DNA from: a bacterium
Lineage (GTDB): Bacteria; Patescibacteriota; CPR2; UBA1875; JAJYID01
Assembly (NCBI GenBank): GCA_021787535.1
Contig: JAJYLR010000001.1
Location: forward strand, 83,648 to 147,647
Length of the DNA stretch: 64,000 nucleotides
Reading direction: 5' to 3'
Part shown: piece by piece, positions 20,657 through 62,783 of the stretch
Layout: each line of letters begins with the position of its first letter
How positions within the stretch are numbered: position 1 is the first letter of the stretch
The notes under the pieces: model-generated
The model's input: only the letters and a program-made list of their open reading frames with translations
The model's database searches: none
Told to the model about the DNA's origin: nothing
Program-made: the position numbers and the translations under genes

Positions 20657-20703
20657 TATCATTCCGAGCGACTTCGCGGTAGCGACGAGCCGAGGAATCC
20701 CTT
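20657..20703. repeat. Palindromic element, type C (GTCATTCCGAGCG...CGAGGAATCCC), intergenic copy
   Basis: tcattccgagcgacttcgcggtagcgacgagccgaggaatccc. The same element occurs inverted at 37801-37848 and as variants inside uvrD and acs. Confidence 0.8.
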
Positions 20704-20735
20704 TTCAATAATGTAATTTAAAATATGATTTATAT

Positions 20736-20763
20736 AGATTCCCGCCTGCGCGGGAATGACAAA
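20736..20763. repeat. Palindromic element, type B (GATTCCCGCCTGCGCGGGAATGAC), intergenic copy
   Basis: Identical or near-identical copies at 38295-38320 (in ppsA) and 54436-54463 (in uvrD). Confidence 0.85.
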
Positions 20764-32780: not shown

Positions 32781-32849
32781 TGTATAGATGCTTGAGTTTT
32801 TGTATAGATATTTGACATTTTGTATAGTTTTTGATAGTATATCTATACA
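32781..32849 (+). promoter_or_regulatory. Promoter (TTGACA-17-TAGTAT) carrying three direct TGTATAG(A) repeats and an inverted CTATACA. A candidate operator array for the downstream MerR-type regulator.
   Basis: tgtataga at 32781 and 32801, tgtatag at 32821 inside the spacer, ctataca at 32843. ttgaca at 32812-32817 and tagtat at 32835-32840. The ATG at 32852 implies a leaderless or very short leader. Confidence 0.5.
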
Positions 32850-32851
32850 AT

Positions 32852-33574
32852 ATGAAAAATAACAAAAAATTGATGCCGATCGGAGAAGCAGCTGATTTCC
32901 TGGAGGTATCGGTTATGACCCTCAGGCGTTGGGATGCTTCCGGAAAACTGCCGGCGCTCAAAAAGCCCAGCGGCCACCGATATTATGAACGCGAAGCGCT
33001 TGAGCGGTTTCGCGAGGATATTTTTGGCTTGGCGAGAACATGGGCGGGCAGCGAGACAGCCCCCGATATTCCAAAAGATTACTACTGTGAAACTCAGGAT
33101 CGCTTTCGCGCTCGGCTTGAACATATGGCAATACTTGCCAGCCAAAAATCCGGGGTATCCGAAGCCGTCCCGATTTTAACAGCTGTGGCGGGAGAAATCG
33201 GCAACAATTCCTTTGATCACAACTTGGGAAACTGGCCTGACGTTCCCGGCGTATTTTTTGTCTATGACACCAATAAGCGTATAATTGTGTTGGCGGATCG
33301 CGGAGTGGGCATTAAGGGAACACTGTCAAGGGTTCGTCCAAATTTAAAAGATGACATTGACGCTCTGACTGTCGCGATGACTGAGCGCATATCGGGGAGA
33401 TCGCCGGAACAAAGGGGAAACGGTTTAAAGTTTGTAGTGAGTGTTACAGCGGAAAATTTGATTAAGGTAACTTTACAATCAGGAATAGCAGTCGCCACTA
33501 TTGAAAGAGGCAAGGCGCACATCTCTCTGGCTGATCGCAATATTCGCGGAGTATTAACTAAGGTGGAGTATTAA
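32852..33574 (+). CDS. MerR-family HTH fused to a GHKL-type ATPase/serine-kinase-like domain (anti-sigma-factor-like). The ORF-track start at 32831 is a TTG; the ATG at 32852 is preferred.
   Basis: The HTH PIGEAADFLEVSVMTLRRWDASGKLPALKKPSGHRYY fits the MerR pattern. The N-box EIGNNSFDH, G1 DRGVGI and G2 GNGLKFV resemble SpoIIAB/RsbW-type GHKL motifs. Confidence 0.55.
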   Translation: MKNNKKLMPIGEAADFLEVSVMTLRRWDASGKLPALKKPSGHRYYEREALERFREDIFGLARTWAGSETAPDIPKDYYCETQDRFRARLEHMAILASQKSGVSEAVPILTAVAGEIGNNSFDHNLGNWPDVPGVFFVYDTNKRIIVLADRGVGIKGTLSRVRPNLKDDIDALTVAMTERISGRSPEQRGNGLKFVVSVTAENLIKVTLQSGIAVATIERGKAHISLADRNIRGVLTKVEY

Positions 33575-33840: not shown

Positions 33841-33874
33841 ATATTGTCTCATTTTAAACATCGTGGTTGCTTTT

Positions 33875-33891: not shown

Positions 33892-33947
33892 TGAAATTGT
33901 ACACATTGTTTTTGAGGCTTTGTTGTGTTTTGGTATTTTTAGATTCT

Positions 33948-34037
33948 CTTTCTTTGTCATCCCGAGTGGAGCGATAGCGTAATCAAGGGATCTTTTTCCG
34001 AGGATTAAGGGATTCCTCCGCTTTGGTCGGAATGACA
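33948..34037. repeat. Composite palindromic element (type C variants) in the intergenic DNA upstream of the phosphoribosyltransferase gene
   Basis: tttgtcatcccgagtggagcgatagcgtaatcaagggatc ... gggattcctccgctttggtcggaatgacag. Confidence 0.65.
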
Positions 34038-34705: not shown

Positions 34706-34782
34706 CAAATAACAAGGGACTGCTAATTTAGGACATAGTTGTTAATTGTTTACTGTTAATTGTTTACTGTTATAATAAGCTT

Positions 34783-37678: not shown

Positions 37679-37800
37679 AGAAAAGAGTAAAATAAGAATG
37701 ACTAATTACCAATATCTAATAACCAATCAATTCTAAAATTTAAAAATTAATTAATTGAAAATTGACTGGAAATTGGGACTTGAAAATTAGAAATTAAGGT

Positions 37801-37848
37801 TAAGGGATTCCTCGGCTTGTCGCTACCGCGAAGTCGCTCGGAATGACA
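37801..37848. repeat. Palindromic element type C, inverted copy of 20657-20703, upstream of ppsA
   Basis: gggattcctcggcttgtcgctaccgcgaagtcgctcggaatgacaaa is the reverse complement of the 20.66-kb copy, with 1-2 differences. Confidence 0.8.
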
Positions 37849-37863: not shown

Positions 37864-40395
37864 ATGAGTAAGAATATACTTTGGTTTAAAGAAGTCGGGA
37901 AAGACGACGGAGCAAGGGTTGGCGGTAAGGGTGCAAATCTTGGTGAGATGTTTAGTGCCGGTCTCCCGGTGCCGAACGGTTTTATCGTCACGGCGCAGGC
38001 TTACTTTGATTTTCTGGATCATACCGGGCTCAAGGCAAAGATTGCAGAAGCGCTTGAAGGCTTAAATGTTGAGGATTCCAAGGATCTGCAAGCGAGAGCG
38101 GAAAAGGTGCAGAGTTTAATAAAGAAGGCTGATTTCCCCCAGGACTTAGCTAATGAAATTACCAAAAATTACCACAAGCTTTCTGAAGAAGGCCAAAAGG
38201 AAAAGGGAAGGAGCAAAAAAGAAGATTCCGGTCAAGCCGGAATGACGGAAGATTCCCCCAATACCCAATACCCAATACCCAATACAGATCGACTGGATTC
38301 CCGCCTGCGCGGGAATGACAAGGCGGGCGTATATGTGGCTGTTCGTTCGAGCGCGACGGCCGAGGATTTGGCTGATGCGTCATTTGCCGGCCAGCAGGCG
38401 ACATACCTGAACATTCTTGGCGATATTCCTGTTTTGCATGCGGTTTTAAAATGCTGGGCGTCGCTCTTTGAAGCCAGAGCTATTTATTATCGCGAAGACA
38501 AAGGGTTTGACCAGCTGGAAGTGGGTATTGCAGTGCCGGTGCAGAAAATGGTCAACTCCGAAAAAGCGGGAGTTATGTTTACCATTGATCCTACAAATAA
38601 CGACATGGAGCATATTTCCATCGAAGCGGCTTACGGGCTTGGCGAAGTGGTTGTTCTGGGCGCCGTTACCCCGGATCGTTATCTGATTGATAAAAAAACC
38701 AGGCAAGTGACCGACAAGGAAATTCACAAACAGACTTGGATGCTAACCCGCGAAGGCGGCAATGCCGATACGGATAACACGGAAGACATCTCAAAGAATG
38801 GCGTCCCCGTACCGGAGGATAAGCAAGGATTGCAAAAGCTGAGCGATGACGAAATCTCACAGCTTACCGATCTGGCTTTGAAAATTGAGAAGCATTACGG
38901 CAAACCGCAAGACACAGAGTGGGCGGTCGAGGGCGGAAAAGTTTACATGACCCAGTCGCGACCGATAACGACATTGCCAAGTAAAGATGATCAGGCAGGA
39001 ATGGATTCCGGACAAGCCGGAATGACAAATGAAGGGCAGGATATTTCCGAGGCCAAAGTGATATTAAAAGGTTCGGCGGCATCAGTCGGGATGGCCGGGG
39101 GACCGGTAAAGATCATTCATTCGCCGAGCGAGATAGACCAGATCTTGGACGGCGATGTTTTGGTCACAGAAATGACCACCCCGGATTTCGTGCCGGCTAT
39201 GAAGAGGGCTTCGGCTATCGTTACTGATGAAGGCGGACGGACCTGCCATGCGGCCATTGTTTCAAGAGAACTTGGTATTCCTTGCGTTGTCGGGACTGAG
39301 ACAGCTACAACTACGCTTAAGGATTACCCGAAAGTAACCGTCGATGGCAAAAGCGGCGCGGTTTATGAAGGTAAGGTTAAATCTCAATCGGATTCTGGAC
39401 AGGATTCTGGACAAGCCAGAATGACGAGCTCAGAGCCAGCGCCGATAACTGCCACGAAAATTTATGTCAACTTGGGAGAACCGGAACTGGCCGAGAAAGT
39501 AGCGGCTCGCGACGTCGATGGGGTGGGCTTGCTGCGCGCTGAGTTCATTATCATGGAGTCCATCGGCGAACATCCCAAGAAAATGATCAAGGAAGGGCGC
39601 CAAGAGGAATATATTACAAAACTAGCCGAAGGACTGGAAACATTTGCCCGGGCCTTTGATCCAAGACCTGTTGTTTATAGGGCTACTGATTTTAAGACTA
39701 ACGAATATCGAGGGCTAAAGGGCGGAGAAGAGTTCGAGCCCGAGGAAGACAATCCGATGATCGGCTATCGCGGCTGCTTCAGATACTTAAAAGATCCGGA
39801 AGAATTTTCATTGGAGCTTGAGGCGATTAAAAAAGTGCGCCAAAACCACAGAAATCTCCACCTGATGATTCCCTTTGTTCGCCGCACCGATGAGTTTCAA
39901 AAAGTTAAAGCAATGGTCGAAAAGAGTGGATTAAATAAAGAGAGCGACCCCGACTTTAAACTTTGGATTATGGTGGAGGTGCCATCGGCTGTTATCGAAA
40001 TAGAAAAGTTCTGCCAGATGGGCATCGACGGCGTGTCAATCGGCTCAAATGACCTGACCCAGCTGACTTTGGGATTAGATCGGGATTCAAATCTTGTGGC
40101 AGAGGAGTTTGATGAGCGAAACGATGCCGTCCAATGGATGATTAAAAGAACGGTGGAAACATGCAAAAAATACGGCGTTACTTGCTCGATCTGCGGCCAG
40201 GCGCCAAGCGTTTATCCCGAAGTAGCGCAGAAAATGGTGGAGTATGGCACCACATCCATTTCCGTAAACCCCGATATGATTGAGAGCACGCGCAAACTGG
40301 TGGCGCAGGTTGAAGAGAAGATTTTGATGAATGAAATGAGCGCAGTTCAGGCGAAATTGTCTGAATTGGAACAAAAGATAGAGACAAATGAGTAA
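37864..40395 (+). CDS. ppsA: Phosphoenolpyruvate synthase (pyruvate, water dikinase)
   Basis: N-terminal ATP-grasp VGGKGANLGEM, phosphohistidine domain GGRTCHAAIVSRELGIPCVVG, and a C-terminal PEP-utilising domain SICGQAPSVYPE...SVNPD. A ggaggg RBS is present. It contains three in-frame repeat-element insertions. Confidence 0.85.
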   Translation: MSKNILWFKEVGKDDGARVGGKGANLGEMFSAGLPVPNGFIVTAQAYFDFLDHTGLKAKIAEALEGLNVEDSKDLQARAEKVQSLIKKADFPQDLANEITKNYHKLSEEGQKEKGRSKKEDSGQAGMTEDSPNTQYPIPNTDRLDSRLRGNDKAGVYVAVRSSATAEDLADASFAGQQATYLNILGDIPVLHAVLKCWASLFEARAIYYREDKGFDQLEVGIAVPVQKMVNSEKAGVMFTIDPTNNDMEHISIEAAYGLGEVVVLGAVTPDRYLIDKKTRQVTDKEIHKQTWMLTREGGNADTDNTEDISKNGVPVPEDKQGLQKLSDDEISQLTDLALKIEKHYGKPQDTEWAVEGGKVYMTQSRPITTLPSKDDQAGMDSGQAGMTNEGQDISEAKVILKGSAASVGMAGGPVKIIHSPSEIDQILDGDVLVTEMTTPDFVPAMKRASAIVTDEGGRTCHAAIVSRELGIPCVVGTETATTTLKDYPKVTVDGKSGAVYEGKVKSQSDSGQDSGQARMTSSEPAPITATKIYVNLGEPELAEKVAARDVDGVGLLRAEFIIMESIGEHPKKMIKEGRQEEYITKLAEGLETFARAFDPRPVVYRATDFKTNEYRGLKGGEEFEPEEDNPMIGYRGCFRYLKDPEEFSLELEAIKKVRQNHRNLHLMIPFVRRTDEFQKVKAMVEKSGLNKESDPDFKLWIMVEVPSAVIEIEKFCQMGIDGVSIGSNDLTQLTLGLDRDSNLVAEEFDERNDAVQWMIKRTVETCKKYGVTCSICGQAPSVYPEVAQKMVEYGTTSISVNPDMIESTRKLVAQVEEKILMNEMSAVQAKLSELEQKIETNE
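38221..38325. repeat. Composite in-frame insertion in ppsA: type A half-element (gattccggtcaagccggaatgac), (CCCAATA)x4 heptamer, and type B element (ggattcccgcctgcgcgggaatgac)
   Basis: Read directly from the sequence. It is translated as EDSGQAGMTEDSPNTQYPIPNTDRLDSRLRGNDKAG. Confidence 0.85.
39003..39028. repeat. Type A half-element (ggattccggacaagccggaatgacaa) in frame in ppsA
   Basis: Translated as DSGQAGMT. Confidence 0.8.
39391..39425. repeat. Type A half-element with a 12-bp internal duplication (gattctggacag-gattctggacaagccagaatgac) in frame in ppsA
   Basis: Translated as SDSGQDSGQARMT. Confidence 0.8.
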
Positions 40396-47231: not shown

Positions 47232-49571
47232 TTGATTGAAAATTCAAAAATCGGAGGGGCTTTGCTAGATCGTTTCTTCAATCCAAAGAGTGTAGCTGTT
47301 ATCGGGGCTTCTCATCATAAAGAGAAGCTTGGGTTTTTGGTTTATGACAATATCAGAAAATACGGTTATAAAGGAAAACTTTATGGAGTGAATATCAAGG
47401 GCGGTTCCGCACATATTTCGCGTAAAAAATCAGGAGCGCAAAATATGTGCGGAATTCCACTCTACAAAACTGTAGGCGATATCCCTGGGCCGATAGATTT
47501 AGCTGTTGTGGTGATACCTGCGAAAGCTGTACCTCAAATAGTTAAAGATTGCGGTAAAAAAGGAATAACTTCTGTCATTATTATCTCGGCCGGGTTTTCT
47601 GAAACTGGAGCAGAAGGCAAAAAGTTAGAGGAAAAAATTGCCGATTTGTCACATAAATACGGTATCAGAATCTTGGGGCCGAACTGTCTCGGCATCATCG
47701 ACTCTTGGAGCAAAATGAACGCCTCTTTTGCCGAAAGTATGCCGGACAAGATGAAGATTTCTCTTCTTTCCCAGTCAGGAGCCATCTGCACGGCTATTTT
47801 AGACTGGGCCAATAGCGAAGAAATCGGTTTCTCCAGATTTATTTCTTTGGGCAATAAGCTTGATATCGATGAAAATGATGTCTTGGCTTATCTAGCCCGT
47901 GACACAAAAACCAAAGTTGTCCTGGCATATCTCGAAAGCATTGCCGATGGCCAGAAATTTATGGATAATGCTAGAAATCTTGCCTTGAAAAAGCCATTTA
48001 TCATGGTGAAGTCAGGCCGAACCAGCGAAGGCGCCAAAAGCATCTCTTCTCATACGGGCAGTATTGCCGGGTCGGATATTGTTATCGATACCGCTCTTCG
48101 CCAGAGCGGAGTGATACGGGCTGAGAGCTTAGAGGACCTCTTTGATCTGGCAAAAATATTTGCCTTTTCACCGGAAATGAAAGGCAAGAACGTTGCTGTT
48201 ATTTCAAATGCCGGCGGTCCGGCAGTTATGCTTGCCGATACGATTGGTCAAAGCCGCTTAAAGCTGGCTAAGTTTGAGCCAAAAACCCGTAAAATTCTAG
48301 AAGAGACATTGCCTCCTGAAGCTGCGACTCATAATCCTGTAGACGTCATCGGTGATGCCAGAGCCGATCGTTATGAAACTGCTACTTGCGAGGTTTTAAA
48401 AGATGAAAATGTTGATGCGGCCATAGTTGTTTTAACACCCCAAGTTATGACAGAGATTGAAGCGACAGCTAAAGTCATTAACAAGGCAAAAAAGTACGGA
48501 AAACCTTTGGCGGTATCTTTTATTGGCGGAGAAAAAGTCGGAGATGGCAGGAAAATTCTCGAAGACTTTGAAATACCTTCATATGAGTTTCCGGAGAGAG
48601 CGATCAAAGCGCTAGAAGCACTATTTGAGTACTATGAATTTAAGAGACACTATGGTCTTTGTCATTCCGACTGCCACCACGTGAGTTGCAAGCGGAGGAA
48701 TCCCTTAAAGAATAGCCAATTTCCAATAACCAATGACCAATCAAGCTCTAATAATCAGATGTCAAACAAAGGTGGTCATTCTGGGGACGGCAGGACCCCG
48801 GAATCTAATACAGATAAGGATTCTGGACAGGTCAGAATGACGAACAACAGGCAAAAGGTATCTGAAATTATCGGACCGGTATTTAACCGGCGCCAAAAGC
48901 TTATCACAGACGGAAGTTCGAGCGCTTTTGATGTTTTTGACGCCTATGGTATCAGCACTATCAAAAGAGCATATGGTCTGGGACTAAAGGATTTGAAAAA
49001 GAAATCGGAAGAACTGGGGTTTCCGCTTGTTGCGAAGACTTGCGCCGAAGGCGTTTTGCACAAAACGGATATTGGCGGAGTCAAGTTGGGTATGAGAGAT
49101 GAAAGCGAACTGCAAAAAGCGTATTTTTCAATTTGTAATAAAGTGCGAAAAGCTGGTTTCGAGGAGGGTTCGGATCGGGTTGACATTTATAAACAAGAAG
49201 AGGACGGCGTCCAAATATTTCTGGGCGCAAAAAAGGATTCCAGTTTTGGACCGCTCATAATTTTTGGTTTAGGCGGAATATTCGTCGAGGCGCTTAAAGA
49301 TTTTTCATATAGAATCGCGCCGGTTACGCATACCGAGGCCAAGAGAATGATCGGCGAAATAAGATCGCAGAAAGTTCTAAACGGTTTTCGGGGCATGCCG
49401 GAAGTTGATCGGGACAAAGTGGCAGATGCAATCGTTGGTTTGTCCCAGCTTATGCTCGACTTCCCGGAAATCAAAGAAGTAGATATTAATCCCTTAATGG
49501 CAACGGATAAAAAATGCGTTGCCATAGACGGAAAAATAATTTTGGACTTAGAAGTAGACCATGGTTTCTAA
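47232..49571 (+). CDS. Acetyl-CoA synthetase (ADP-forming), fused alpha/beta type. The real start is probably the TTG at 47265, which has a GGAGG RBS.
   Basis: The CoA-binding N-terminus FFNPKSVAVIGAS, succinyl-CoA-synthetase-like flavodoxin domains and a C-terminal ATP-grasp. A ~60-aa repeat-element insertion sits in the inter-domain linker. Confidence 0.85.
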   Translation: MIENSKIGGALLDRFFNPKSVAVIGASHHKEKLGFLVYDNIRKYGYKGKLYGVNIKGGSAHISRKKSGAQNMCGIPLYKTVGDIPGPIDLAVVVIPAKAVPQIVKDCGKKGITSVIIISAGFSETGAEGKKLEEKIADLSHKYGIRILGPNCLGIIDSWSKMNASFAESMPDKMKISLLSQSGAICTAILDWANSEEIGFSRFISLGNKLDIDENDVLAYLARDTKTKVVLAYLESIADGQKFMDNARNLALKKPFIMVKSGRTSEGAKSISSHTGSIAGSDIVIDTALRQSGVIRAESLEDLFDLAKIFAFSPEMKGKNVAVISNAGGPAVMLADTIGQSRLKLAKFEPKTRKILEETLPPEAATHNPVDVIGDARADRYETATCEVLKDENVDAAIVVLTPQVMTEIEATAKVINKAKKYGKPLAVSFIGGEKVGDGRKILEDFEIPSYEFPERAIKALEALFEYYEFKRHYGLCHSDCHHVSCKRRNPLKNSQFPITNDQSSSNNQMSNKGGHSGDGRTPESNTDKDSGQVRMTNNRQKVSEIIGPVFNRRQKLITDGSSSAFDVFDAYGISTIKRAYGLGLKDLKKKSEELGFPLVAKTCAEGVLHKTDIGGVKLGMRDESELQKAYFSICNKVRKAGFEEGSDRVDIYKQEEDGVQIFLGAKKDSSFGPLIIFGLGGIFVEALKDFSYRIAPVTHTEAKRMIGEIRSQKVLNGFRGMPEVDRDKVADAIVGLSQLMLDFPEIKEVDINPLMATDKKCVAIDGKIILDLEVDHGF
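48661..48842. repeat. Composite in-frame insertion in the acs linker: type C variant, a CCAAT-type heptamer stretch, and a full type A element (gtcattctggggacggcaggaccccggaatc-N13-gattctggacaggtcagaatgac)
   Basis: Read directly. It is translated as CHSDCHHVSCKRRNPLKNSQFPITNDQSSSNNQMSNKGGHSGDGRTPESNTDKDSGQVRMT. Confidence 0.85.
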
Positions 49572-50037: not shown

Positions 50038-51141
50038 GTGGCAACTCAAACTAAAACTAAAACGGTTTTAATGACCGGGAATCAAGCGGTGGTGAAAGCG
50101 GCTTTGGCTGTCGGTGCTGAGATGTTCAGCGGTTATCCGATAACGCCGACTACTGAAATTCTGACCGAATGGTCAAAAGCGGCCGAAAATAATAAAGATC
50201 TCATATTTTTGCAGACCGAGGATGAGCCGGCGGCCGGCTTTGTGATGATTGGCGGAGTTTCCATGGGCAAAAAGGCTTGGACGGCGACAGCCGGCGTCGG
50301 GCACGTTCTGATGCAGGATCCGCTCTCTATGGCAGAAGCTATGAGAATCCCGACGGTGACTTATATCGGCCAGCGCGGCGGTCCCTCAACCGGCACAGTG
50401 ATCTATTCCCAGCAAGAGCTGAATCTGGCTCGGATGGGCGGAAACGGCGAAGGCCTTCGCATCGTCTTTGCGCCTTCGAACCTGCAAGAACTCTACGATC
50501 TGACCATTAAGGCATTTAATGTAGCTTGGAAATACCGGTTTCCGACATTTATTCTATCCGACGGATATCTTGCCAAAACATATGGAGAAATTGAGCTTTG
50601 GCAGCCAAACAAATCGGAAATCGTGCCGACCGAAAGTTTCTTTTTGAATCCCAAAACAAGTCCGAACAATATCAGAAACTGCTACTCTATGGAGGTTGAG
50701 CTTTATGACCAACTGCTCAAAGACTTTGCCGATTATGCCAAAATGTCAGAGAAAGTTGAAGAAAGCGAGCTACTTGGCGACAAGAAGACAAATCTTTTAG
50801 TTTGCGCCTGGGGTGCGGTAGGAAACTCGGCTAAAACAGCGCTTAAGGCACTGGAAAAACAAAACATTTATTTTAAACTTTTCCGTCCGATTACTCTTAG
50901 GCCGTTTCCGGCAAAAGATCTGCAAAAAGCGGCGGAAGGAGTGACGGATATCCTCATTTTAGAGTCAGCAAACGGGCAGTTTGGCCGCATTGTGCGAGAA
51001 TCTTTGTATGGCACGACCGAAGCCGAAGTGCATCGCCTGTACAAACCGGCTATGGGCATCATGCCGGAAGAAATTCAAGCCAAAGTTAAGGAAGTATTTA
51101 AATTGGAGGATTCTGGACAAGCCAGAATGACGCAATCATGA
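50038..51141 (+). CDS. 2-oxoacid:ferredoxin oxidoreductase alpha subunit (pyruvate/2-ketoisovalerate type)
   Basis: LMTGNQAVVKAALAVGAEMFSGYPITPTTEI matches the PorA/KorA N-terminus. The C-terminal tail EDSGQARMTQS is encoded by a type A half-element. Confidence 0.85.
   Translation: MATQTKTKTVLMTGNQAVVKAALAVGAEMFSGYPITPTTEILTEWSKAAENNKDLIFLQTEDEPAAGFVMIGGVSMGKKAWTATAGVGHVLMQDPLSMAEAMRIPTVTYIGQRGGPSTGTVIYSQQELNLARMGGNGEGLRIVFAPSNLQELYDLTIKAFNVAWKYRFPTFILSDGYLAKTYGEIELWQPNKSEIVPTESFFLNPKTSPNNIRNCYSMEVELYDQLLKDFADYAKMSEKVEESELLGDKKTNLLVCAWGAVGNSAKTALKALEKQNIYFKLFRPITLRPFPAKDLQKAAEGVTDILILESANGQFGRIVRESLYGTTEAEVHRLYKPAMGIMPEEIQAKVKEVFKLEDSGQARMTQS
51108..51131. repeat. Type A half-element (ggattctggacaagccagaatgac) forming the 3' end of the OFOR alpha gene
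   Basis: Identical to the copy at 39403-39425. Confidence 0.85.
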
Positions 51142-53377: not shown

Positions 53378-54098
53378 CATTGCACTTTGAGAATATTCGC
53401 GGTTTATACAGCTGTAATTGGTTTCTAGATTAGAGATCAGTTATAGCTGTATAAGCAAAAGTTTCCTCTCGGGTGCCACTGGAAAGTGGGACGAGGGGAC
53501 CCTCTGTACTCCCAGGGGGATACATGAGCAACCCGGAGATTGGGGAAGAGGTTGTTCTGAAAGGGAGCCGAATATAGCAGCCCCAACTGCGTATGTCGGG
53601 CCAGGTCCTCTGGTTACTCCATGAAAAACCTCATGTGGAGGTCAATGATAGAAGGAGGATATCCTGATCTAGTTTTACTGGTCTTCTATCGTTGCATCGT
53701 TAAAAGGAGATATGCACGGCAACCGCAATCTCGCCCCGAAGGAGGGAATAAAGCGGTACCAGTTGCAACTGGACGTGCGTGGGTTCTCTATTCAGTCAGG
53801 AGAATAGTTAATCTACGCTTTCAAAGATTCCCAAGGGCTTGGCTTTTATTGAAGTTCCCTCCGATGGCGGAAGGAGAGCGCTGCTCTCATATTTCTTGCC
53901 GCCCAGTGCGCCACATATGTTGGGGTACTGATCTGTGTGAGGGGGTCGGAGCTATTGGGGTCGCGGTTCTCCCGTCCTCCTTAAGGAGGCTTAGAACGAA
54001 CCGAAGTCGGTAGGGTGCCCAAATCCGGAGCCCTGAATACGCACCCTGCCCAACTAGTAAGGGACGCCTCCAATTGGAGGCGTCCCGATTTCTTTTTG
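53378..54098 (+). ncRNA. Candidate large structured ncRNA (~0.7 kb) of unknown class: promoter-to-terminator unit, GC-rich, no credible ORF
   Basis: ~52% GC against a ~40% background. Multiple GNRA-capped hairpins (ctggaaagtgg, gttctgaaaggg). Long-range complementarity cgggtgcc (53470s) with gcaccctg (54040s) would close the molecule. It ends in a perfect hairpin plus U-run. The overlapping ORFs are Arg/Pro/Trp-rich junk. Bacterial RNase P P4 motifs and tmRNA ends were looked for and not found. Confidence 0.3.
54061..54098 (+). terminator. Rho-independent terminator
   Basis: gggacgcctcc-aatt-ggaggcgtccc (an 11-bp perfect stem) followed by gatttcttttt. Confidence 0.8.
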
Positions 54099-54139
54099 TA
54101 TACTTACTCTCACTTCCCAAATCCGCTATAATAGAATGC

Positions 54140-56647
54140 ATGGCGGATTTTTTAGATGATTTAAATGAGATGCAGAAAGAGGCGGTCAAAACTACCGAAG
54201 GGCCCCTTCTTATTTTAGCCGGGGCCGGCAGCGGCAAGACCAAAGCCCTGACTTACCGCATCGCTTACTTAATTAGCGAAAAAAATGTCGATCCGGAGCG
54301 GATTTTGGCCGTGACTTTTACCAATAAAGCGGCCAAGGAAATGGTCTCGAGAGTTGAGAAACTACTCTCGAGAAATAACCAATTTCCAAGTCCCAATTTC
54401 CAATCAATTTTCAATGATCAAAATTCAAAAAGTCTGGATTCCCGCCTTCGCGGGAATGACAAGGAGGGAAAGGGATCCGTCGACTCCCATTCGGCTGCGC
54501 TCAGGGCAGGCTTTCGCGAAGTCGCTCAGAATGACAGAAAAGGGGAGCAAGAAGTCTGTCGAAATGACCCACGCACCGAAAATGGTGCGGGGCAAGCAAT
54601 ACAGAATACCGAATACTCAATACAGCATACTGTCACCGGCCGCAGGCCTGTCATGGGTACTTTTCACTCTGTTTGCGTCAAAATTCTACGGCGGGAGATA
54701 GGCCATCTCGGCTATAAATCGAGCTTTACCATTTATGACTCGGGCGACTCCAATAGGGCGGTAAAGATTGCCATGAAAGAACTCTCTATTGATGAGAAGA
54801 AATTCAATCCCAGAACAATACAAAATTACATCTCCTCGGCAAAAAATGAGCTGATTGGCGAGAAAGAGTACGCTGCGCTCGTCAACGGCTATATCCAGGA
54901 AATGGCTTCCAAAGTGTACTTTGAATACCAAAAAATTCTTAAAAACGCCCATGCGCTGGACTTTGACGATCTGATTATGAAGACGGTAGAAATCTTCCAA
55001 AAATTTCCAGAAATCTTGGAGAAATATCAGAAGCAATTCAAATATATTCATATAGATGAGTATCAGGACACAAACCACGCCCAGTATGTTTTTTCAAAAC
55101 TGCTGGCAGCTAAACATGAAAATATCTGTGTGGTGGGGGACGACTGGCAAAGTGTTTATGCATTTCGCGGGGCGAACTTCCAGAACATCCTAGATTTCGA
55201 GAAGGATTATCCGAATGCAAAAGTGGTCAAACTTGAGCAAAATTATAGATCAACAAAAACCATTTTGGATGCTGCCCATCATATTATCAAAAAGAATGAA
55301 AACCGAAGCGACAAAGAGCTCTGGACTGAAAACATTCTGGGTGTTCCTATCCTGACATTTGAGGCAAAAGACGAGGTAGATGAAGGAAGATTTATCATTC
55401 AGGAAATTTCGAGTTCAGCCCGCGATCTTTCTGATTTTGCTGTTTTATACCGCACAAATGCCCAGTCAAGAAGCCTTGAAGAACAGTTTCTAAAAGCCGG
55501 CATGAAGTACAGGATTTTCGGAGGAGTGAGGTTCTATGAGCGAAAGGAAATTAAAGATATTATCGCATACCTCAGGTTCATTCAGAATCCAAATGACTGG
55601 GTGGCGCTCGAGCGGATTATCAATGTTCCGTCGAGAGGAATAGGGGCAGCTAGTTTGAAAAAAATAAAGGAATTTTTTTCAAATAATTTGCAATTTCCAA
55701 TTTCCAATTTTCAATCAAATTCCAATAACCAAATTCCAAACAAAAGCCGTCATTTTGGGGACGATAGGACTCCAGAATCAAACTCGGATAAGGATTCTGG
55801 TCAAGCCAGAATGACGGAAGGTAAGGGTGACTTGGTTGGTATACTGGAAAAAGTGAAATTCAGCAATATTCTTTCCGGCAAAGCGCTAGCCGGATTTAAG
55901 TCATTTATGAAAGCCATTATTGAGCTCGAAGATCAGAAAGATAAATTGCAACTGGTGAAGTTCATCGATCAGGTTATGAAAAAAACCGGCTACTATGATT
56001 CGCTTGATGACAAAACTATCCAAGGTGAAGAAAGGCAGGAAAACCTGAAAGAGCTTTTGTCGGTAGCAGAGGAATTTGTCAAGGATAGAGAAGACTTCGG
56101 TCTTGAGGATTTTCTCGAGGAAGTGGCTCTTATTTCCGATATTGATAACTACTCGGAAGACGAGCAGTCCGTGGCGCTTATGACCTTGCATTCGGCCAAA
56201 GGGCTCGAGTTTCCCTGTGTTTTCATTGCCGGGATGGAAGAGGGGATCTTTCCGCATTCTCGTTCACAGCTTGATATCGAAGAAATGGAAGAAGAGCGCA
56301 GATTGGCATATGTCGGTATCACAAGAGCAAAAGAAAGAGCGTATCTGGTTAGCGCTCGCAGGCGTCTTCTCTATGGAAACTATCAGTCCAATCCGGCGTC
56401 GAGATTCATCTCTGATATTCCCGGTGAGCTCAAGAAAGACATTAACCGGTTTGAAACGTCATTGGACTCAAAGATTTATGAAAAGCAAATCCCGCAGTTT
56501 GCTCCCGGAGAAAAAGTTCTGCATGACAAGTTTGGCGTAGGCATAGTCCAAGACGTCAAAGGCGATGAGATGACTGTATCTTTTGAAAAGGTGGTGGGTC
56601 TCAAAGTTCTCTCTACCATTTACGCGCCGATTGAGAAGATAAGATGA
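54140..56647 (+). CDS. uvrD: ATP-dependent DNA helicase UvrD/PcrA (SF1). The ORF-track start at 54074 lies inside the upstream terminator; the ATG at 54140 is preferred.
   Basis: Motif I LLILAGAGSGKTKALTYRIAYLI, then GTFHSVC, DEYQDTN and later SF1 motifs. tataat at 54127-54132 sits 7 nt before the ATG, implying a leaderless mRNA. There are two large in-frame repeat insertions. Confidence 0.85.
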   Translation: MADFLDDLNEMQKEAVKTTEGPLLILAGAGSGKTKALTYRIAYLISEKNVDPERILAVTFTNKAAKEMVSRVEKLLSRNNQFPSPNFQSIFNDQNSKSLDSRLRGNDKEGKGSVDSHSAALRAGFREVAQNDRKGEQEVCRNDPRTENGAGQAIQNTEYSIQHTVTGRRPVMGTFHSVCVKILRREIGHLGYKSSFTIYDSGDSNRAVKIAMKELSIDEKKFNPRTIQNYISSAKNELIGEKEYAALVNGYIQEMASKVYFEYQKILKNAHALDFDDLIMKTVEIFQKFPEILEKYQKQFKYIHIDEYQDTNHAQYVFSKLLAAKHENICVVGDDWQSVYAFRGANFQNILDFEKDYPNAKVVKLEQNYRSTKTILDAAHHIIKKNENRSDKELWTENILGVPILTFEAKDEVDEGRFIIQEISSSARDLSDFAVLYRTNAQSRSLEEQFLKAGMKYRIFGGVRFYERKEIKDIIAYLRFIQNPNDWVALERIINVPSRGIGAASLKKIKEFFSNNLQFPISNFQSNSNNQIPNKSRHFGDDRTPESNSDKDSGQARMTEGKGDLVGILEKVKFSNILSGKALAGFKSFMKAIIELEDQKDKLQLVKFIDQVMKKTGYYDSLDDKTIQGEERQENLKELLSVAEEFVKDREDFGLEDFLEEVALISDIDNYSEDEQSVALMTLHSAKGLEFPCVFIAGMEEGIFPHSRSQLDIEEMEEERRLAYVGITRAKERAYLVSARRRLLYGNYQSNPASRFISDIPGELKKDINRFETSLDSKIYEKQIPQFAPGEKVLHDKFGVGIVQDVKGDEMTVSFEKVVGLKVLSTIYAPIEKIR
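54370..54655. repeat. ~285-bp composite in-frame insertion in uvrD between helicase motifs I and Ia: heptamer stretch, type B element, an inverted type C variant, and AATAC-type repeats
   Basis: Translated as a ~95-aa insert: SRNNQFPSPNFQSIFNDQNSKSLDSRLRGNDKEGKGSVDSHSAALRAGFREVAQNDRKGEQEVCRNDPRTENGAGQAIQNTEYSIQHTVTGRRPV. The type B copy at 54436-54463 matches 20736-20763. Confidence 0.85.
55684..55814. repeat. Composite in-frame insertion in uvrD: (AATTTCC)-type heptamer stretch plus a full type A element (gtcattttggggacgataggactccagaatc-N13-gattctggtcaagccagaatgac)
   Basis: Translated as NLQFPISNFQSNSNNQIPNKSRHFGDDRTPESNSDKDSGQARMT. Confidence 0.85.
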
Positions 56648-58039: not shown

Positions 58040-58091
58040 AGTATAGCCACAGAAGAACTAAAGAACAAGATAACAGATTCGATTTATTCAA

Positions 58092-58127
58092 AAGGACAGT
58101 CCTTGCATTCTAGAAGGACTGTCCTTA
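58092..58127 (+). terminator. Pair of gene-end palindromes (aaggacagtcctt ... aaggactgtcctt) after the RpfB-like gene
   Basis: Same core as 32756-32772 and 33875-33891. Confidence 0.45.
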
Positions 58128-58172
58128 TTAAGTAAATTCAGCTATAATAAGCGTGCAAACAAAGAAGAAACT

Positions 58173-59051
58173 ATGGATTTAACCAATATTTTAGAATTAA
58201 AGAAATTAATGCGGACATATGGTGCTTGGCCAAACAAAGACCTTGGCCAGCATTTTTTAACTGATAAAAGCGTCTTGGCTAAAATGGTTGAAACAACCGG
58301 TCTTTCCAAGAACGATATAGTAGTAGAAGTCGGTCCAGGTCTTGGCATTATGACTCGTGAACTGGCAAAAAGAGCCAAAAAAGTTTATGCCGTTGAAATA
58401 GATCCGAAGATTGCCGAGATTCTCTCTACTACCTGCATTAAATACCCTAATATAAAAATCGTCAGAGGAGATATTAGGGATTTTAGTCCGAAAGGTATTG
58501 GAAAGTATAAGGTGGCGGCAAATCTCCCGTACTACATCACTTCTCATGTTATAAAAAAATTTCTGGAGGAAAAACATAAGCCAGCAACCATTACTGTGCT
58601 CATACAGCGAGAAGTAGCCGAAAGAATCTGCGCCAAGCCGGGCAGAATGAGTATTCTCTCTGTGGCTGTTCAGTTTTATGGGATGCCTGAGATTGTGGAG
58701 CTTGTGTCACCCATGGCTTTCTTCCCGTCACCGAAAGTTTATTCGGCAATTCTTAAAATTAAGGTTTTCAAGGAACCTCTTTTTGAAGATATAAATGCGA
58801 GAGTATTTTTCAGATTGGTCAGAGCCGGTTTTGGCGAGAAGAGGAAAATGCTGTCAAACTCAATGTCCGGAGGACTGGGCATTGATAAGGATATAGCTGA
58901 AAAGCTTTTGAAAGGCGCCGGAGTTGAGCCGATGCTTCGGGCAGAAAGATTATCTCTAGATGACTGGCGGCGCATCTATCTGGTTTTTAATAAATATTTA
59001 AACTTAAGCGGAGGTAAGAGTGCGCAGATGGCGGATCAAAGTGACTGGTGA
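58173..59051 (+). CDS. rsmA: 16S rRNA (adenine1518/1519-N6)-dimethyltransferase
   Basis: LGQHFL, the VVEVGPGLG SAM motif and NLPYYIT. Confidence 0.85.
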   Translation: MDLTNILELKKLMRTYGAWPNKDLGQHFLTDKSVLAKMVETTGLSKNDIVVEVGPGLGIMTRELAKRAKKVYAVEIDPKIAEILSTTCIKYPNIKIVRGDIRDFSPKGIGKYKVAANLPYYITSHVIKKFLEEKHKPATITVLIQREVAERICAKPGRMSILSVAVQFYGMPEIVELVSPMAFFPSPKVYSAILKIKVFKEPLFEDINARVFFRLVRAGFGEKRKMLSNSMSGGLGIDKDIAEKLLKGAGVEPMLRAERLSLDDWRRIYLVFNKYLNLSGGKSAQMADQSDW

Positions 59052-59289
59052 CGTCCAAGGCGTTTTCTATCGCTTTAGCGCGAAGATGGAGGCGGAAAAG
59101 CTGGGAATAACAGGTTTTGGTGAAAATGAGTCTGATGACAGTGTCCTTATAATCGCAGAAGGCGAACAGGAAGCGTTGGAAAAATTTAGCCGGTGGTTGA
59201 AAGAAGGCCCGCCGATGGCTGAAGTTGAAGATGTACAGATCGAGGAAGATGATTATACTGGAGAATTTAAAGGTTTCGAGGTCCGGTAA
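59020..59289 (+). CDS. acyP: Acylphosphatase
   Basis: The VTGDVQGVFYRFSAKMEAEKLGITGF acylphosphatase signature. It overlaps the rsmA 3' end in another frame, and the exact start is uncertain. Confidence 0.65.
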   Translation: MRRWRIKVTGDVQGVFYRFSAKMEAEKLGITGFGENESDDSVLIIAEGEQEALEKFSRWLKEGPPMAEVEDVQIEEDDYTGEFKGFEVR

Positions 59290-60011
59290 TGCTGTATGTA
59301 GTTTCTACTCCGATTGGTAATCTGGATGACATCACTCTTCGCGCGCTCGAAACCTTAAAGAATGTCGATCTTGTTGCCTGCGAAGATACGCGCCATACAA
59401 AAATCCTGCTTGATAAGCATAGTATCCCTTTTTGTCATTCTGGGGACGGTAGGACGCCAGAATCTGATTCTGGGCAAGCCAGAATGACGAGCCGGTCACG
59501 GCTCGTCAGCTATCATCAGCATTCAGGGTCAGTAAAAACCGAGAAAATTCTAACGATGCTGAAAGATGGCAAAGATGTTGCTCTTGTGACTGATGCCGGT
59601 ACGCCCGGTATTTCTGATCCTGGCAGTAAGTTAGTTGCCGAAGCAGCAGCAGATGGTATCGAGATTACATCCATTCCGGGCCCTGCCGCCTTTGTGAGTG
59701 CTTTAAGCGTTTCTGGATTTGACACTTCTGAATTTATTTTTATCGGATTTCTTCCTCACAAAAAGGGACGGCAAACAAAGCTGAAAGAAATAAGCGGTGA
59801 AAAGCGGACAGTTGTGTTGTATGAATCGGTACATCGGATAAAAAAGTTGTTCGGAGAGCTGTCAGAAATTATTCCAAACAGAGAGATATGTGTTTGCCGT
59901 GAACTGACTAAGAAATTTGAAGAGATCTATCGTGGAAAACCATCAGAGCTCATGGATCAAATTATAGAAAAAGGAGAATTTGCGGTTGTTATAGGAGGCA
60001 GAAATGATTAA
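59289..60011 (+). CDS. rsmI: 16S rRNA C1402 2'-O-methyltransferase (tetrapyrrole-methylase fold)
   Basis: LYVVSTPIGNLDDITLRALETLKNVDLVACEDTRHT matches the RsmI N-terminus. It contains one in-frame type A insertion. Confidence 0.85.
   Translation: MLYVVSTPIGNLDDITLRALETLKNVDLVACEDTRHTKILLDKHSIPFCHSGDGRTPESDSGQARMTSRSRLVSYHQHSGSVKTEKILTMLKDGKDVALVTDAGTPGISDPGSKLVAEAAADGIEITSIPGPAAFVSALSVSGFDTSEFIFIGFLPHKKGRQTKLKEISGEKRTVVLYESVHRIKKLFGELSEIIPNREICVCRELTKKFEEIYRGKPSELMDQIIEKGEFAVVIGGRND
59434..59488. repeat. Full type A element, short form (gtcattctggggacggtaggacgccagaatc-tgattctgggcaagccagaatgac), in frame in rsmI
   Basis: Translated as CHSGDGRTPESDSGQARMT. Confidence 0.85.
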
Positions 60012-60672
60012 AGCAGTTATCTTTGATTTTGACGACACCTTGATCTACACGCAAAGGATTTGTATAAAAAACTATATTAGCGCTGCTAAAAATCTTAATA
60101 TGCGCGTTCCTACCGAGAGGGAAGTAGTCCGGCTTTTCGGTCTGCCTTGGCCAAAGATAGTTGAGATTTTATGGCCTGAAGCAGATCTTGAAACTTTCAA
60201 TGAGGCATACGTACAATGCAGAGGCAAGGAGGAATATGAAGCGGTCAAAAATGCCGGGGAAACTATCAAAAAACTCAAACAGAGTTTTACACTTGGTATC
60301 TTGACCTCGAGAAGGGGAAGCAGTATTTATCGGGTAATGAAAGAGACAGGTTATGACAAAGAAGACTTTAAGTTTATTGATACGCATAATGATGGCAAAA
60401 TCTCTAAGCCGGACCCAAAAGTTTTTAATCATTTTAAAAATATTTTGGACACCGAAGGAATTATTGCGGAAGAAACCGTTTATGTCGGTGATGCCATATT
60501 TGACTATCAGGCGGCAAGAGATGCGGGACTCCACTTTATTGCTTTCATTAATGGGGCCTATACCGGCGAAGAATTCATTGAGGAGGGCTTAGACAAGAAT
60601 CTGGTAATGAAATCATTTAAAGAACTGCCGGGTATTTTGGCAAAGAATTTTAAAATGGAGAAAGTTGCATGA
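60004..60672 (+). CDS. HAD-superfamily hydrolase (phosphatase / beta-phosphoglucomutase-like)
   Basis: Motif I AVIFDFDDTL, then GILTSR and VYVGDAIFD. Confidence 0.7.
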   Translation: MIKAVIFDFDDTLIYTQRICIKNYISAAKNLNMRVPTEREVVRLFGLPWPKIVEILWPEADLETFNEAYVQCRGKEEYEAVKNAGETIKKLKQSFTLGILTSRRGSSIYRVMKETGYDKEDFKFIDTHNDGKISKPDPKVFNHFKNILDTEGIIAEETVYVGDAIFDYQAARDAGLHFIAFINGAYTGEEFIEEGLDKNLVMKSFKELPGILAKNFKMEKVA

Positions 60673-61301
60673 TTAAGACGATTATTTTTGACAATCACGG
60701 AGTTATTACATCGAGTACTGCGGAAGGAGCAGACGAAAAGTTCGCCGATTTTTTGGGCGTGGACCTCGACCGGTTTAACAAGGTCTGGGGCAGCTTAGAA
60801 GGCATTGTCGATGAAGGGAAAATGACTAGTGATGATTTTTTAAAAAATCTTTTACACAGAACAAACTGCCATAAAGATTTATCGGATTTTAAGAAGATCT
60901 ATTTTGGAAGCTATTTCCCGAAACTTGATGTCCAAGATTTTGCCAAAGAACTGGGCAAAAGCTTTGAAATCGTCCTGCTTACAAACTACGGCGACAGTTT
61001 TCGTTATGTTAACGGCAGAAGCTGGCACCTAGAAAAAATATTCGGCGATAAAATATTTGTTTCAGCCGAACTGAAAATGAGAAAGCCCCATAAAGATATT
61101 TACCAGTATGTTCTGGACAAAATCGGGAAGAAGCCGGAAGAAACTGTATTTATCGATGACAATCCCAAGTTCATAAAAACGGCGAAAGAACTCGGAATGC
61201 ACACTATTCTTTTTGAGTCGCTTGACCAGGTCAAAAAAAATCTCGAAGAAATATTAGTTTCACAAGGGCAATCTCTGCAGACACAAGGTCTGTCCTTGTA
61301 G
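60669..61301 (+). CDS. HAD-superfamily hydrolase
   Basis: Motif I TIIFDNHGVI and motif IV FIDDN. Its start overlaps the stop of the upstream gene. Confidence 0.65.
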   Translation: MIKTIIFDNHGVITSSTAEGADEKFADFLGVDLDRFNKVWGSLEGIVDEGKMTSDDFLKNLLHRTNCHKDLSDFKKIYFGSYFPKLDVQDFAKELGKSFEIVLLTNYGDSFRYVNGRSWHLEKIFGDKIFVSAELKMRKPHKDIYQYVLDKIGKKPEETVFIDDNPKFIKTAKELGMHTILFESLDQVKKNLEEILVSQGQSLQTQGLSL

Positions 61302-61326: not shown

Positions 61327-62778
61327 ATGTCTAAAAAGTTTTATATAGATACTTCTATTCCGTATGCAAACGGAAATCCCCACATAGGACATCCTCTGGA
61401 TCCTTTATACGGTGATGTTCTAGCAAGATATTATCGCGCTAACGGTTATGATGTTTTTTTTCTTGTCGGCTTGGACGAGAATGGCCAAAGCGTTTACAAC
61501 AAAGCCAAATGCGCGGAAGTCCCGGTTCAGGAGTTTACTGAGAATGTGCGCAAGAAATTCATAGAAATGCATGAAAAGTTAAATGATTCTTACGATGGAT
61601 TTATCAGGACTACCGATAAAAAACTGCATTGGCCGACGGCGCAGGAGATATGGAAAAGGGCTGAGAAGGCCGGTGATATTTACAAAAAAAACTATCAAGG
61701 GCTTTACTGTGTCGGTTGTGAAGAGTTCAAGCTGGAAAGAGATTTGGTTGATGGCAAATGTCCGGATCACCAAACCAAACCGGAGAAAATCGAGGAGGAA
61801 AACTATTTCTTCAAACTCTCAAATTACCAAAAATTTTTACAGGATTTGTTTGATAAAAATCCGGATTTTGTTTATCCGAAAAACAAATATAACGAAGCTT
61901 ATCAAATCATCAAAGGTGGGCTGGAAGACGTAAGTATTTCCCGGCCGAAGGAAAGGCTTCCGTGGGGTGTACCCGTGCCGGGTGATGACAGCCACGTTAT
62001 GTATGTCTGGTTTGACGCGCTGACAAATTACTTATCCGGTATTGGGTTTACCTCAGACAAAAAGAAATTCGAAAGGTATTGGCCGACTGACCTAAACATC
62101 GTTGGCAAAGACAACAACAAATGGCATTCTATTCTCTGGCCGGCAATTTTAAAGTCGGTAGGACTTCAGTTGCCTAAGAAAGTTTTTGTTCATGGGCACG
62201 TTCTTGGCAAAGGCAATGTAAAGATGAGCAAAACGATAGGCAACGTAGTCGATCCGATGGAGATGATTGATAAATATGGGGCTGATGCTTTTCGATATTT
62301 TATTCTTGCCAAAATCCCAGTGGATTCTGATGGCGCCTTTGATGAAGATCATTTCAGGGAAGTTTATAATTCAGAGCTTTCAAATAAGTTGGGTAATCTT
62401 TTACAGAGAACAATTTCAATGATTAATAAGTATAATGTAAAAATTTCTGACAAGGAGATCGACAGGTTTGGCGGAAGCATAGACGAAAAGATCGGGAATT
62501 TAGATTTTAATGGGGCTTTGCGTTCAGTTATTAGAATGGTAGAGGTGGCAAATGAAGAAATTGATAGTAAAAGACCTTGGGAATTGGCAAAATCTGGTAA
62601 AACGAGAGAGCTAAATGCATTATTAAGTGAAATCTATTGGATATTGAATTCAGTAGCCAAAAATATCTATCCTTTCATGCCCGACACCAGTAAAAAAATG
62701 AAAAAACAGCTTAAAAATTTAAAACCGGTACCTTTGTTTCCGAGGATGGAGAAAGATTCCCGATCGGGTCGGGAATGA
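61327..62778 (+). CDS. metG: Methionyl-tRNA synthetase (class I, compact form)
   Basis: The HIGH motif ANGNPHIGHPL, the KMSKS motif VKMSKTIGN, and the zinc-knuckle region CVGCEEF...CPDHQ. Confidence 0.9.
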   Translation: MSKKFYIDTSIPYANGNPHIGHPLDPLYGDVLARYYRANGYDVFFLVGLDENGQSVYNKAKCAEVPVQEFTENVRKKFIEMHEKLNDSYDGFIRTTDKKLHWPTAQEIWKRAEKAGDIYKKNYQGLYCVGCEEFKLERDLVDGKCPDHQTKPEKIEEENYFFKLSNYQKFLQDLFDKNPDFVYPKNKYNEAYQIIKGGLEDVSISRPKERLPWGVPVPGDDSHVMYVWFDALTNYLSGIGFTSDKKKFERYWPTDLNIVGKDNNKWHSILWPAILKSVGLQLPKKVFVHGHVLGKGNVKMSKTIGNVVDPMEMIDKYGADAFRYFILAKIPVDSDGAFDEDHFREVYNSELSNKLGNLLQRTISMINKYNVKISDKEIDRFGGSIDEKIGNLDFNGALRSVIRMVEVANEEIDSKRPWELAKSGKTRELNALLSEIYWILNSVAKNIYPFMPDTSKKMKKQLKNLKPVPLFPRMEKDSRSGRE

Positions 62779-62783
62779 CAAGC
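62755..62783. repeat. Type B variant element (gattcccgatcgggtcgggaatgacaag) forming the last codons and the TGA stop of metG
   Basis: The ORF ends ...EKDSRSGRE, followed by a TGA that lies inside the gggaaTGAc terminus of the element. Confidence 0.8.

Follow-up and report, generated by a model that had tools for sequence, protein, structure and literature searches.

The locus examined here raises the question of why a complete palindromic repeat lies in frame inside rsmI, and whether it is the encoded peptide or the DNA itself that has been conserved. In the following, the window denotes the whole stretch of DNA that was analysed (64 kb), with positions counted from its first nucleotide. The host gene, the insertion and the parts of the element are located as follows.

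59289..60011, + strand: rsmI, 16S rRNA C1402 2'-O-methyltransferase, 240 aa (PF00590, PDB 5HW4, orthologs)
59427..59492, + strand: net gain of about 22 codons (66 nt) over orthologs that lack an insert, residues ~47-68 (alignment; codons of the empty site in locus L145)
59434..59488, + strand: 55-nt inverted doublet ("type A") within rsmI, made up in this order of GTCATTCTGG (59434-43), GGACGGTAGGACG (59444-56, 13 nt), CCAGAATC (59457-64), T (59465), GATTCTGG (59466-73), GCAAG (59474-78, 5 nt) and CCAGAATGAC (59479-88)
59434..59464, + strand: left half (A-left), hairpin with the 13-nt loop GGACGGTAGGACG, tag TGTCATTC on the + strand
59466..59489, - strand: right half, T1 hairpin, reading CGTCATTCTGGCTTGCCCAGAATC on the - strand (CGTC tag)

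The open reading frame matches the Pfam family TP_methylase (PF00590) over its full length (5e-36) and E. coli RsmI (5HW4) at 8e-47. RsmI orthologs without an insert comprise 217-223 aa, the nearest of them (217-219 aa) being 74-76% identical to the protein of the window, and both the ortholog alignment and the codon comparison with L145 place the ~22 extra residues between the conserved segments ...LLDKxxI and LVSYHQHS. A gap stands opposite the insert in the alignment with E. coli RsmI. The E. coli and ortholog alignments bear out the first-pass annotation in so far as it described a complete repeat element situated in frame between conserved RsmI segments. The 55-nt element is translated as HSGDGRTPESDSGQARM, in the RsmI context ...PFCHSGDGRTPESDSGQARMTSR...

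The AlphaFold2 model of RsmI (mean pLDDT 80) positions the insert between a helix (residues 34-43) and a strand (residues 70-74), with pLDDT values below 50 at residues 53-66, and the insert is predicted by this model to be a disordered loop. Six other RsmI orthologs carry differing inserts at exactly the same loop, among them peptides that derive from hairpins of another type (VCHSDC...RRNPL, LDSSLREVARNDR) as well as stretches of low complexity, and the site is empty at the L145 locus. In the syntenic relative L146, whose UvrD is roughly 85-90% identical by eye with inserts excluded, a heptamer-repeat-like stretch occupies the RsmI loop, and a different hairpin type is found at the second site of insertion in UvrD. 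Since relatives bear differing modules at the same loops, the RsmI and UvrD loops are hot spots with rapid turnover. Neither a target-site duplication nor an exact empty-site boundary was definable against L145, which is too divergent (76% amino acid identity).

The arms of the doublet are complementary at two levels, GTCATTCTGG with CCAGAATGAC as the outer stem and CCAGAATC with GATTCTGG as the inner stem, and the layout at 59434-59488 agrees with the earlier description of nested palindromes that share the core ccagaatctgattctgg. Two alternative folds are available to the 55 nt, either a single long interrupted hairpin or two adjacent hairpins. Folding of the single-stranded DNA yielded the long interrupted hairpin at -14.3 and -12.7 kcal/mol for the two strands with a z of about -3 (-3.0 for -14.3). 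The tag of the right half, CGTCATTC, is located at 59482-59489 on the - strand and is the same at the copies 38225, 39404, 51110 and 55794; it is degenerate in the left half and in some other copies, since TGTC or GGTC is read there. With this tag, an 8-bp stem, a 5-nt loop and GAATC, the rsmI element is assignable by its sequence features to the class of CGTC-tagged REPs and Ssn-related motifs (SRM), as an inverted doublet. The name "type A" was that of the first-pass annotation; the element falls in the published CGTC-REP / NTS-SRM class.

The element belongs to a family of hairpins in the window, of which 22 were catalogued as units of 23-30 nt: T1 (GATTCYGG-NCAAG-CCRGAATGAC), T2 (GGATTCCCGCCTGCGCGGGAATGAC), T3 (longer GTCATTCCGAG...GGAATC forms) and A-left (hairpin with a 13-nt loop). 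Sixteen of the 22 lie within eight ORFs, while six are intergenic. The hairpin-bearing ORFs are those of a PPDK/PEP-synthase-like protein (four copies), enolase, acetyl-CoA synthetase, pyruvate:ferredoxin oxidoreductase (POR) alpha, UvrD (two clusters), RsmI and MetRS. The members outside rsmI that matter to the argument are these.

14479-14501, 22984-23029, 34000-34036 and 37800-37847: intergenic copies
20659..20761, no strand assigned: intergenic cluster between pgk and tpiA, T3 at 20659-20702 and T2 at 20734-20761
38224..38246, - strand: single T1 hairpin with the CCGG variant of the stem, lying in frame in ORF 37864..40395 (PPDK/PEP-synthase-like)
39004-39026 and 39403-39425: further copies in the PPDK-like ORF, which also holds a T2 hairpin at 38293-38320
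42479-42525, + strand: long T2-like hairpin that supplies the C-terminal tail of enolase
48661-48705: T3 hairpin upstream of the acs doublet, together with a heptamer-repeat module at 48711-48741
48775..48841, + strand: complete doublet, its halves separated by a 13-nt central spacer, in the linker between domains of ADP-forming acetyl-CoA synthetase (ORF 47232..49571)
51109..51131, - strand: single T1 hairpin in ORF 50038..51141, providing the C-terminal codons of pyruvate:ferredoxin oxidoreductase alpha
54434..54461, - strand: T2 hairpin TGTCATTCCCGCGAAGGCGGGAATCCAG, which fits the published SRM pattern exactly and differs from the NTS consensus of Neisseria by one substitution
55749..55815, + strand: full doublet with a 13-nt central spacer in UvrD/PcrA (ORF 54074..56647)
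62756..62779, - strand: T2-like hairpin at the 3' end of metG, with the metG TGA stop (62776-62778) inside the GAATGAC of the element

Three inverted doublets are present in the window. The copies with a 13-nt spacer that had been reported earlier for acs and uvrD are both there, the latter displaced by one base (55749-55815 instead of 55748-55814), and the orientation and phase ascribed to the three full copies hold, each of them (rsmI, acs, uvrD) starting at codon position 2. Compared with PcrA (1PJR), UvrD contains composite inserts of ~87 aa (residues 100-193) and ~42 aa (residues 537-590). The larger one comprises the T2 hairpin at 54434-54461 and a T3 hairpin at 54510-54535; the smaller one comprises the doublet and a heptamer module at 55685-55744. 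The 136-nt composite in uvrD and the acs copy share 77% identity (family D8).

On the + strand of the window GAATGAC occurs 20 times and GTCATTC 6 times. No Rfam family was recovered at the gathering threshold. Intrinsic terminators were considered and dropped, the hairpins having no downstream T-runs. A GC-skew switch near 8-10 kb was considered as a replication origin as well, a proposal weakened by the resemblance of this segment to a conjugative island.

In the scan of a genome collection the T1 23-mer was found at 119 loci at least, mostly in Nitrospirota/Thermodesulfovibrionia and in many lineages of Patescibacteria, and inverted T1 pairs were seen elsewhere at L012, L033, L035, L050 and L077. 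The A-left half was detected on five contigs of a metagenome scan, four of which hold a near-identical 55-nt doublet; all five copies are non-coding. Among the matches listed, 112 of 139 exact copies in other genomes, and 42 of 56 copies at other CPR loci, lie outside open frames of at least 150 codons. With the strict pattern the intragenic share amounts to 9/9 in the window of this genome, compared with 14/56 at the other CPR loci listed (Fisher p=2.6e-5).

The scan pattern left the stem positions 6 and 16 free, and among the matches listed these positions form a C-G pair in 97 cases and a T-A pair in 57, with seven mismatched. The compensatory change from C-G to T-A converts DSGQAGMT into DSGQARMT, i.e. 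it exchanges glycine for arginine. Since the pairing of the stem covaries despite this change in the peptide, conservation seems to act on the nucleic acid and not on the peptide.

A candidate for the protein that recognises the hairpins was indicated by six of the loci. At L126, L127, L130, L105, L124 and L125 hairpins of the T1 type directly flank single-domain GIY-YIG ORFs of 87-104 aa, which we designate ssn-like according to Pfam PF01541 and protein length. The arrangements are as follows.

L126 (Howlettbacteria): cGTCATTCTGGCTTGTCCAGAATC 15 nt upstream of the ATG and GGATTCTGGACAAGCCAGAATGAC directly after the stop codon
L127 (Levybacteria): loop variants on either side, the stop codon of the ssn-like gene being supplied by an A-left-like hairpin at its 3' end
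L130: long-looped hairpin of the T1 type upstream of the gene, and a second T1 hairpin in frame in the C-terminal codons of the gene
L105: ssn-like gene with hairpins at both flanks
L124 and L125: hairpin upstream of the ssn-like gene, the contigs ending within the gene

L124 and L125 additionally bear the A-left hairpin or the full doublet, and the 13-nt loop of A-left occurs as a single hairpin upstream of the ssn-like gene of L124. Named sources among the 120 GIY-YIG homologs listed were Howlett-, Roizman- and Levybacteria; none of the 120 is encoded on the 635,771-bp contig of the present genome. In the 64-kb window no ssn or GIY-YIG nuclease gene was detected by a GIY-YIG regular expression or by phmmer of the six-frame ORFs. 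At 13 loci on viral contigs the hairpin was present with no adjacent ssn-like gene. Based on the hairpin-ssn-hairpin cassettes in the CPR relatives, an Ssn-type single-strand nuclease is probably, by analogy, the partner that recognises T1 and doublet hairpins.

Taking these observations together, we regard it as likely that the rsmI element is a non-autonomous, selfish hairpin repeat of the CGTC-REP/SRM class, laid out like a REPIN as an inverted doublet and tolerated in frame in a disordered loop of RsmI. The functional unit would be a single-stranded DNA hairpin with the asymmetric tag (C/T)GTCATTC; its conservation is shown by the covariation described above, and for homologs elsewhere Ssn GIY-YIG nucleases have been demonstrated to bind and cleave the single-stranded DNA site-specifically. 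A nuclease of this type would recognise the repeats and, judging from the CPR cassettes, may also disseminate them. New copies would land anywhere, the genes of the compact genome of ~0.64 Mb included, and those within genes would persist only if the net insert is a multiple of three, the frame is free of stops and the peptide is hydrophilic and disordered and placed in a permissive surface loop. Since the core lengths of 55 and 67 nt are congruent to 1 modulo 3, extra bases are needed to restore the frame. In rsmI about 22 residues would have been added in this way between helix 2 and strand 3, leaving the methyltransferase fold unbroken.

Alternatively, the hairpins could be kept in genes for a role at the level of the host, either as Ssn recognition marks that shape the recombination of incoming DNA or as mRNA structures acting on translation or stability. 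SsnA and the NTS modulate natural transformation in Neisseria (PMC11893778), and such a role would be in line with the stem covariation, the strong + strand bias (20 GAATGAC vs 6 GTCATTC) and the unusually heavy intragenic load. However, covariation is equally expected if subfamilies are copied as units, the window contains no ssn gene and this contig encodes none of the 120 homologs listed. Furthermore, the occupancy of the same loop varies among close relatives, with one ortholog site being empty, which resembles turnover, and the hairpins have no T-runs of the terminator type. We therefore consider a host-level role rather unlikely. Ultra-small CPR bacteria are thought to depend on DNA uptake, and a bolder form of the idea is conceivable, in which the Ssn nuclease and the hairpins constitute a host-level system in CPR and the hairpins set in frame into housekeeping genes mark these genes and control the recombination of incoming single-stranded DNA with them. 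We hold this version to be quite improbable; if it were true, the in-frame hydrophilic phase would have evolved as a compromise by which essential proteins can accommodate DNA signals.

The first-pass annotation favoured a different explanation, in which several enzymes have acquired HSGDGRTPES..DSGQARMT as a protein module under positive selection, and proposed that a tabulation of strand and codon phase would reveal it. The tabulation did yield a bias, with coding-strand GATTC... copies in the frame GAT|TCY ('DS...') in 11 of 11 cases and GTCATTC... copies in the mirror-image frame xGT|CAT|TCY ('xHS...') in four of five, but the shared phase does not support selection on the peptide in the way that was argued. 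For all three doublets no forward frame but the observed one is free of stops, frame 0 ending at the TGA of the element and frame 1 containing stops, so that the phase is largely forced once the orientation is fixed and its coincidence in three copies is not significant on its own. One or two of the reverse frames are open in the doublets. As the host genes are all on the + strand, orientation is inseparable from the direction of genes and replication.

Two same-strand frames of a single T1 hairpin are open (DSGQARMT and FWTSQND), and the hairpins inside ORFs of the window and of the CPR loci listed use the DSGQARMT frame in 9/9 cases (binomial p=0.004). Stop avoidance does not account completely for this phase bias or for the high intragenic share. 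According to the six-frame analysis the observed doublet frame is also the most hydrophilic one (GRAVY -1.7 to -1.9), which is a point in favour of a selected module. Nevertheless, the compensatory stem changes alter the peptide, near-identical 55-nt copies are non-coding and most copies elsewhere are intergenic. The insert is moreover predicted to be disordered and is missing from most orthologs, the host proteins are functionally unrelated, a 44-aa tandem peptide had no index words in common with any protein, and a 47-column profile searched against 1.84 billion representatives retrieved no match at E<=0.001, i.e. no protein family. Selection for the peptide is thus very unlikely, and the data suggest an extra filter for tolerable hydrophilic loop sequence instead of a selected peptide function. 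In terms of the selfish-repeat explanation, the shared orientation and phase would mainly be the outcome of this survival filter, with no sign of a peptide function.

An insertion-sequence-derived MITE, or a classical REP or REPIN moved by a tyrosine transposase of the IS200/IS605 type (RAYT), would also account for short, abundant, palindromic copies and for the REPIN-like inverted doublet. However, the tag is CGTC/TGTC and not GTAG, CGTC REPs have been reported never to flank RAYT genes (PMC3733652), and the gene flanked in the six loci encodes a GIY-YIG nuclease and not a Y1 transposase. Since, in addition, neither a RAYT nor another transposase gene was identified in the 64-kb window and terminal inverted repeats accompanied by target duplications were not observed, this origin appears highly improbable. 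A chance palindrome or an assembly artefact has a negligible probability, because even though repeats often break or confuse metagenome assemblies and many ssn-like genes are on short contigs, the half-pattern has seven matches compared with 0.25 expected from shuffled sequence, the sequence of 56917-60872 recurs with 100% identity in an independently made Logan assembly of SRR13170411, the frame and the conserved domains continue on both sides, and the element recurs in unrelated datasets.

The kind of element described here is already known, as are in-frame palindromic repeats in genes since the work on Rickettsia. New are the CPR host lineage for the CGTC-REP / Ssn-motif class, a hairpin variant that is missed by the published motif yet brackets CPR ssn-like genes, and, in core enzymes, the dense load and the turnover of composite inserts that keep the frame. 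With little intergenic space in a genome of ~0.64 Mb, the repeats accumulate in frame inside core enzymes, affecting RsmI, UvrD, glycolytic and pyruvate-metabolism genes and MetRS with inserts of up to ~87 aa. Since close relatives carry differing modules at the same loops, they offer a natural comparative system for the spread of repeats, their mobilisation by Ssn and the tolerance of loops for random peptide. When CPR genomes are annotated, gene callers and homology pipelines should be prepared to meet peptides of repeat origin, DSGQARMT and LDSRLRGND for example, within real proteins.

Among the known systems, REPINs and their RAYTs resemble the rsmI element in being inverted doublets of REP-like units that form one long hairpin. 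They differ in that REPINs are extragenic, and the present element is without the GTAG tag and the RAYT association.

RPE-1 (Ogata et al. 2000, cited in PMC10969869) is selfish palindromic DNA inserted in frame into unrelated housekeeping genes at positions compatible with the fold. The repeats of the window likewise occupy permissive sites of housekeeping genes in frame (RsmI, UvrD, acetyl-CoA synthetase, the PPDK-like ORF). RPE-1 is, however, ~150 bp long and restricted to Rickettsia, whereas the element described here measures 55-67 nt and is composed of 23-30-nt hairpins that are common across phyla.

A further parallel is provided by the NTS/dRS3-SsnA system of Neisseria, where the NTS reads CGTCATTCCCGCGMAVGCGGGAATCYRG, Ssn-related motifs are hairpins flanking small GIY-YIG genes, and Ssn nucleases cleave the hairpin-bearing single strand site-specifically (PMC11893778). 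Both share the (C)GTCATTC...GAATC hairpin with its asymmetric 5' tag and, at the CPR loci, the order hairpin-gene-hairpin around a GIY-YIG gene of ~90-100 aa. The published SRM pattern, HGTCWYN(0-2)YYVSBRHN(0-5)WNVSBRGN(0-2)RNCYNB, is matched in the window by the three T2 hairpins only; T1 and A-left hairpins fall outside it, even those that flank ssn-like genes. Further differences are that no ssn was found in the window and that the text of PMC11893778 contains no discussion of intragenic or in-frame copies.

The element also resembles the CGTC-tagged REPs (Di Nocera et al. 2013), which include RPE-4 and RPE-6 of Rickettsia, a link that rests on the grouping made there, and in which dimers are frequent (PMC3733652). 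Their intragenic in-frame copies encode 20-30 aa, or 43-82 aa as clusters, and often reside in uvr and rec genes (PMC3733652). The repeats of the window are likewise short multi-copy stem-loops with CGTC at one end that form inverted dimers, and the two have in common head-to-head or tail-to-tail arrangement, in-frame intragenic copies, repair genes of the uvrD type as hosts and overlap with ORF ends. The present repeats are distinguished by a CPR/Patescibacteria host outside the five phyla reported, the stem CTGG/CCAG with the loop CTTGN, a left half tagged TGTC, and a very high intragenic share.

Some hairpins of the window encode the C-terminal residues of three proteins (MetRS, enolase and POR alpha):
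62756-62779, hairpin at the C-terminal end of the MetRS gene (metG)
42479-42525, hairpin at the C-terminal end of the enolase gene
51109-51141, hairpin at the C-terminal end of the POR alpha gene
The stop codon of metG is also provided by the hairpin, since the TGA falls within GAATGAC.

Furthermore, tandem heptanucleotide repeats adjoin hairpins in the window, their units being CCAATNN, CCCAATA, AAGTAAC and CAAATTT, among others:
38257-38285, 48711-48741, 54379-54404 and 55685-55744, tandem heptanucleotide repeats
16827-16853, 19298-19393 and 34690-34771, intergenic tandem heptanucleotide repeats
Within ORFs some of these repeats are translated into N/Q/P-rich stretches such as QFPITNDQ. Heptanucleotide repeats and hairpins are combined into mosaic inserts, and the copies of a 136-nt composite in the acs ORF and in uvrD are 77% identical.

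Further repeats and palindromes were detected in the window:
23163-28784 and 28862-32731, a pair of very large neighbouring ORFs of 1873 and 1289 aa
32738-32779, 33857-33898 and 58086-58126, copies of the motif AAGGAC(A/T)GTCCTT
59487-59506, perfect 8-bp palindrome ACGAGCCG-GTCA-CGGCTCGT, immediately adjoining the rsmI element
The two ORFs have 300-nt blocks in common, with 79-80% identity between them (repeat families D1, D2, D9 and D17), and the ORFs probably encode paralogous surface or repeat proteins. The recurrent palindromic motif AAGGAC(A/T)GTCCTT, which is distinct from the hairpin repeats, is located upstream of a MerR-family gene (32831..33574), a phosphoribosyltransferase gene and ksgA, where it is tandemly duplicated, and may represent an operator site. 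The palindrome next to the rsmI element shares bases with the conserved RLVS codons of the gene; taken alone it is not significant because 64 kb should hold several such hairpins by chance.

The left end of the window resembles an island of conjugative or integrative type:
1-10422, minus strand (all genes), putative island with a GC content of 36-40% and negative GC skew
2910-5075, minus strand, N6/N4 DNA methylase
6676-7443, minus strand, Replic_Relax protein
7585-10422, minus strand, TraG/TrwB-type coupling protein
The first 14 kb of the window hold none of the 22 catalogued hairpins, which is consistent with a recent acquisition of the island.

Beyond the window, 13 contig stretches from IMG/VR that are classified as viral (L132-L144; GC 45-58%) contain the exact 23-mer of hairpin type T1 as well, with no ssn-like gene next to it in any of them. 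One of them (L140) is dense in GTCATTC/GAATGAC motifs, with 20 occurrences. Loci from other genomes and metagenomes carry the ssn-like nuclease gene between flanking hairpins:
L130 2251-2553 (likewise L131), within a type IV secretion/conjugation cluster
L126 (Howlettbacteria) 3001-3282, inserted in the conserved rpsP-KH-trmD operon
L128 2900-3330, on a 642,726-bp gut metagenome contig, with a different flanking hairpin (GTCATTGCGAGCGAAGGCGAAGCAATCC / inverse)
The cluster in L130 and L131 comprises PrgI-like, TraC-like and TraG P-loop genes, and at L130 the C-terminus of the ssn-like gene itself encodes DSGQARMT. The placements in L130/L131 and L126 point to mobility of the hairpin-ssn-hairpin cassette itself and to an ability to ride conjugative elements. 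The gut metagenome locus is one illustration that every nuclease clade is paired with a cognate hairpin variant of its own.
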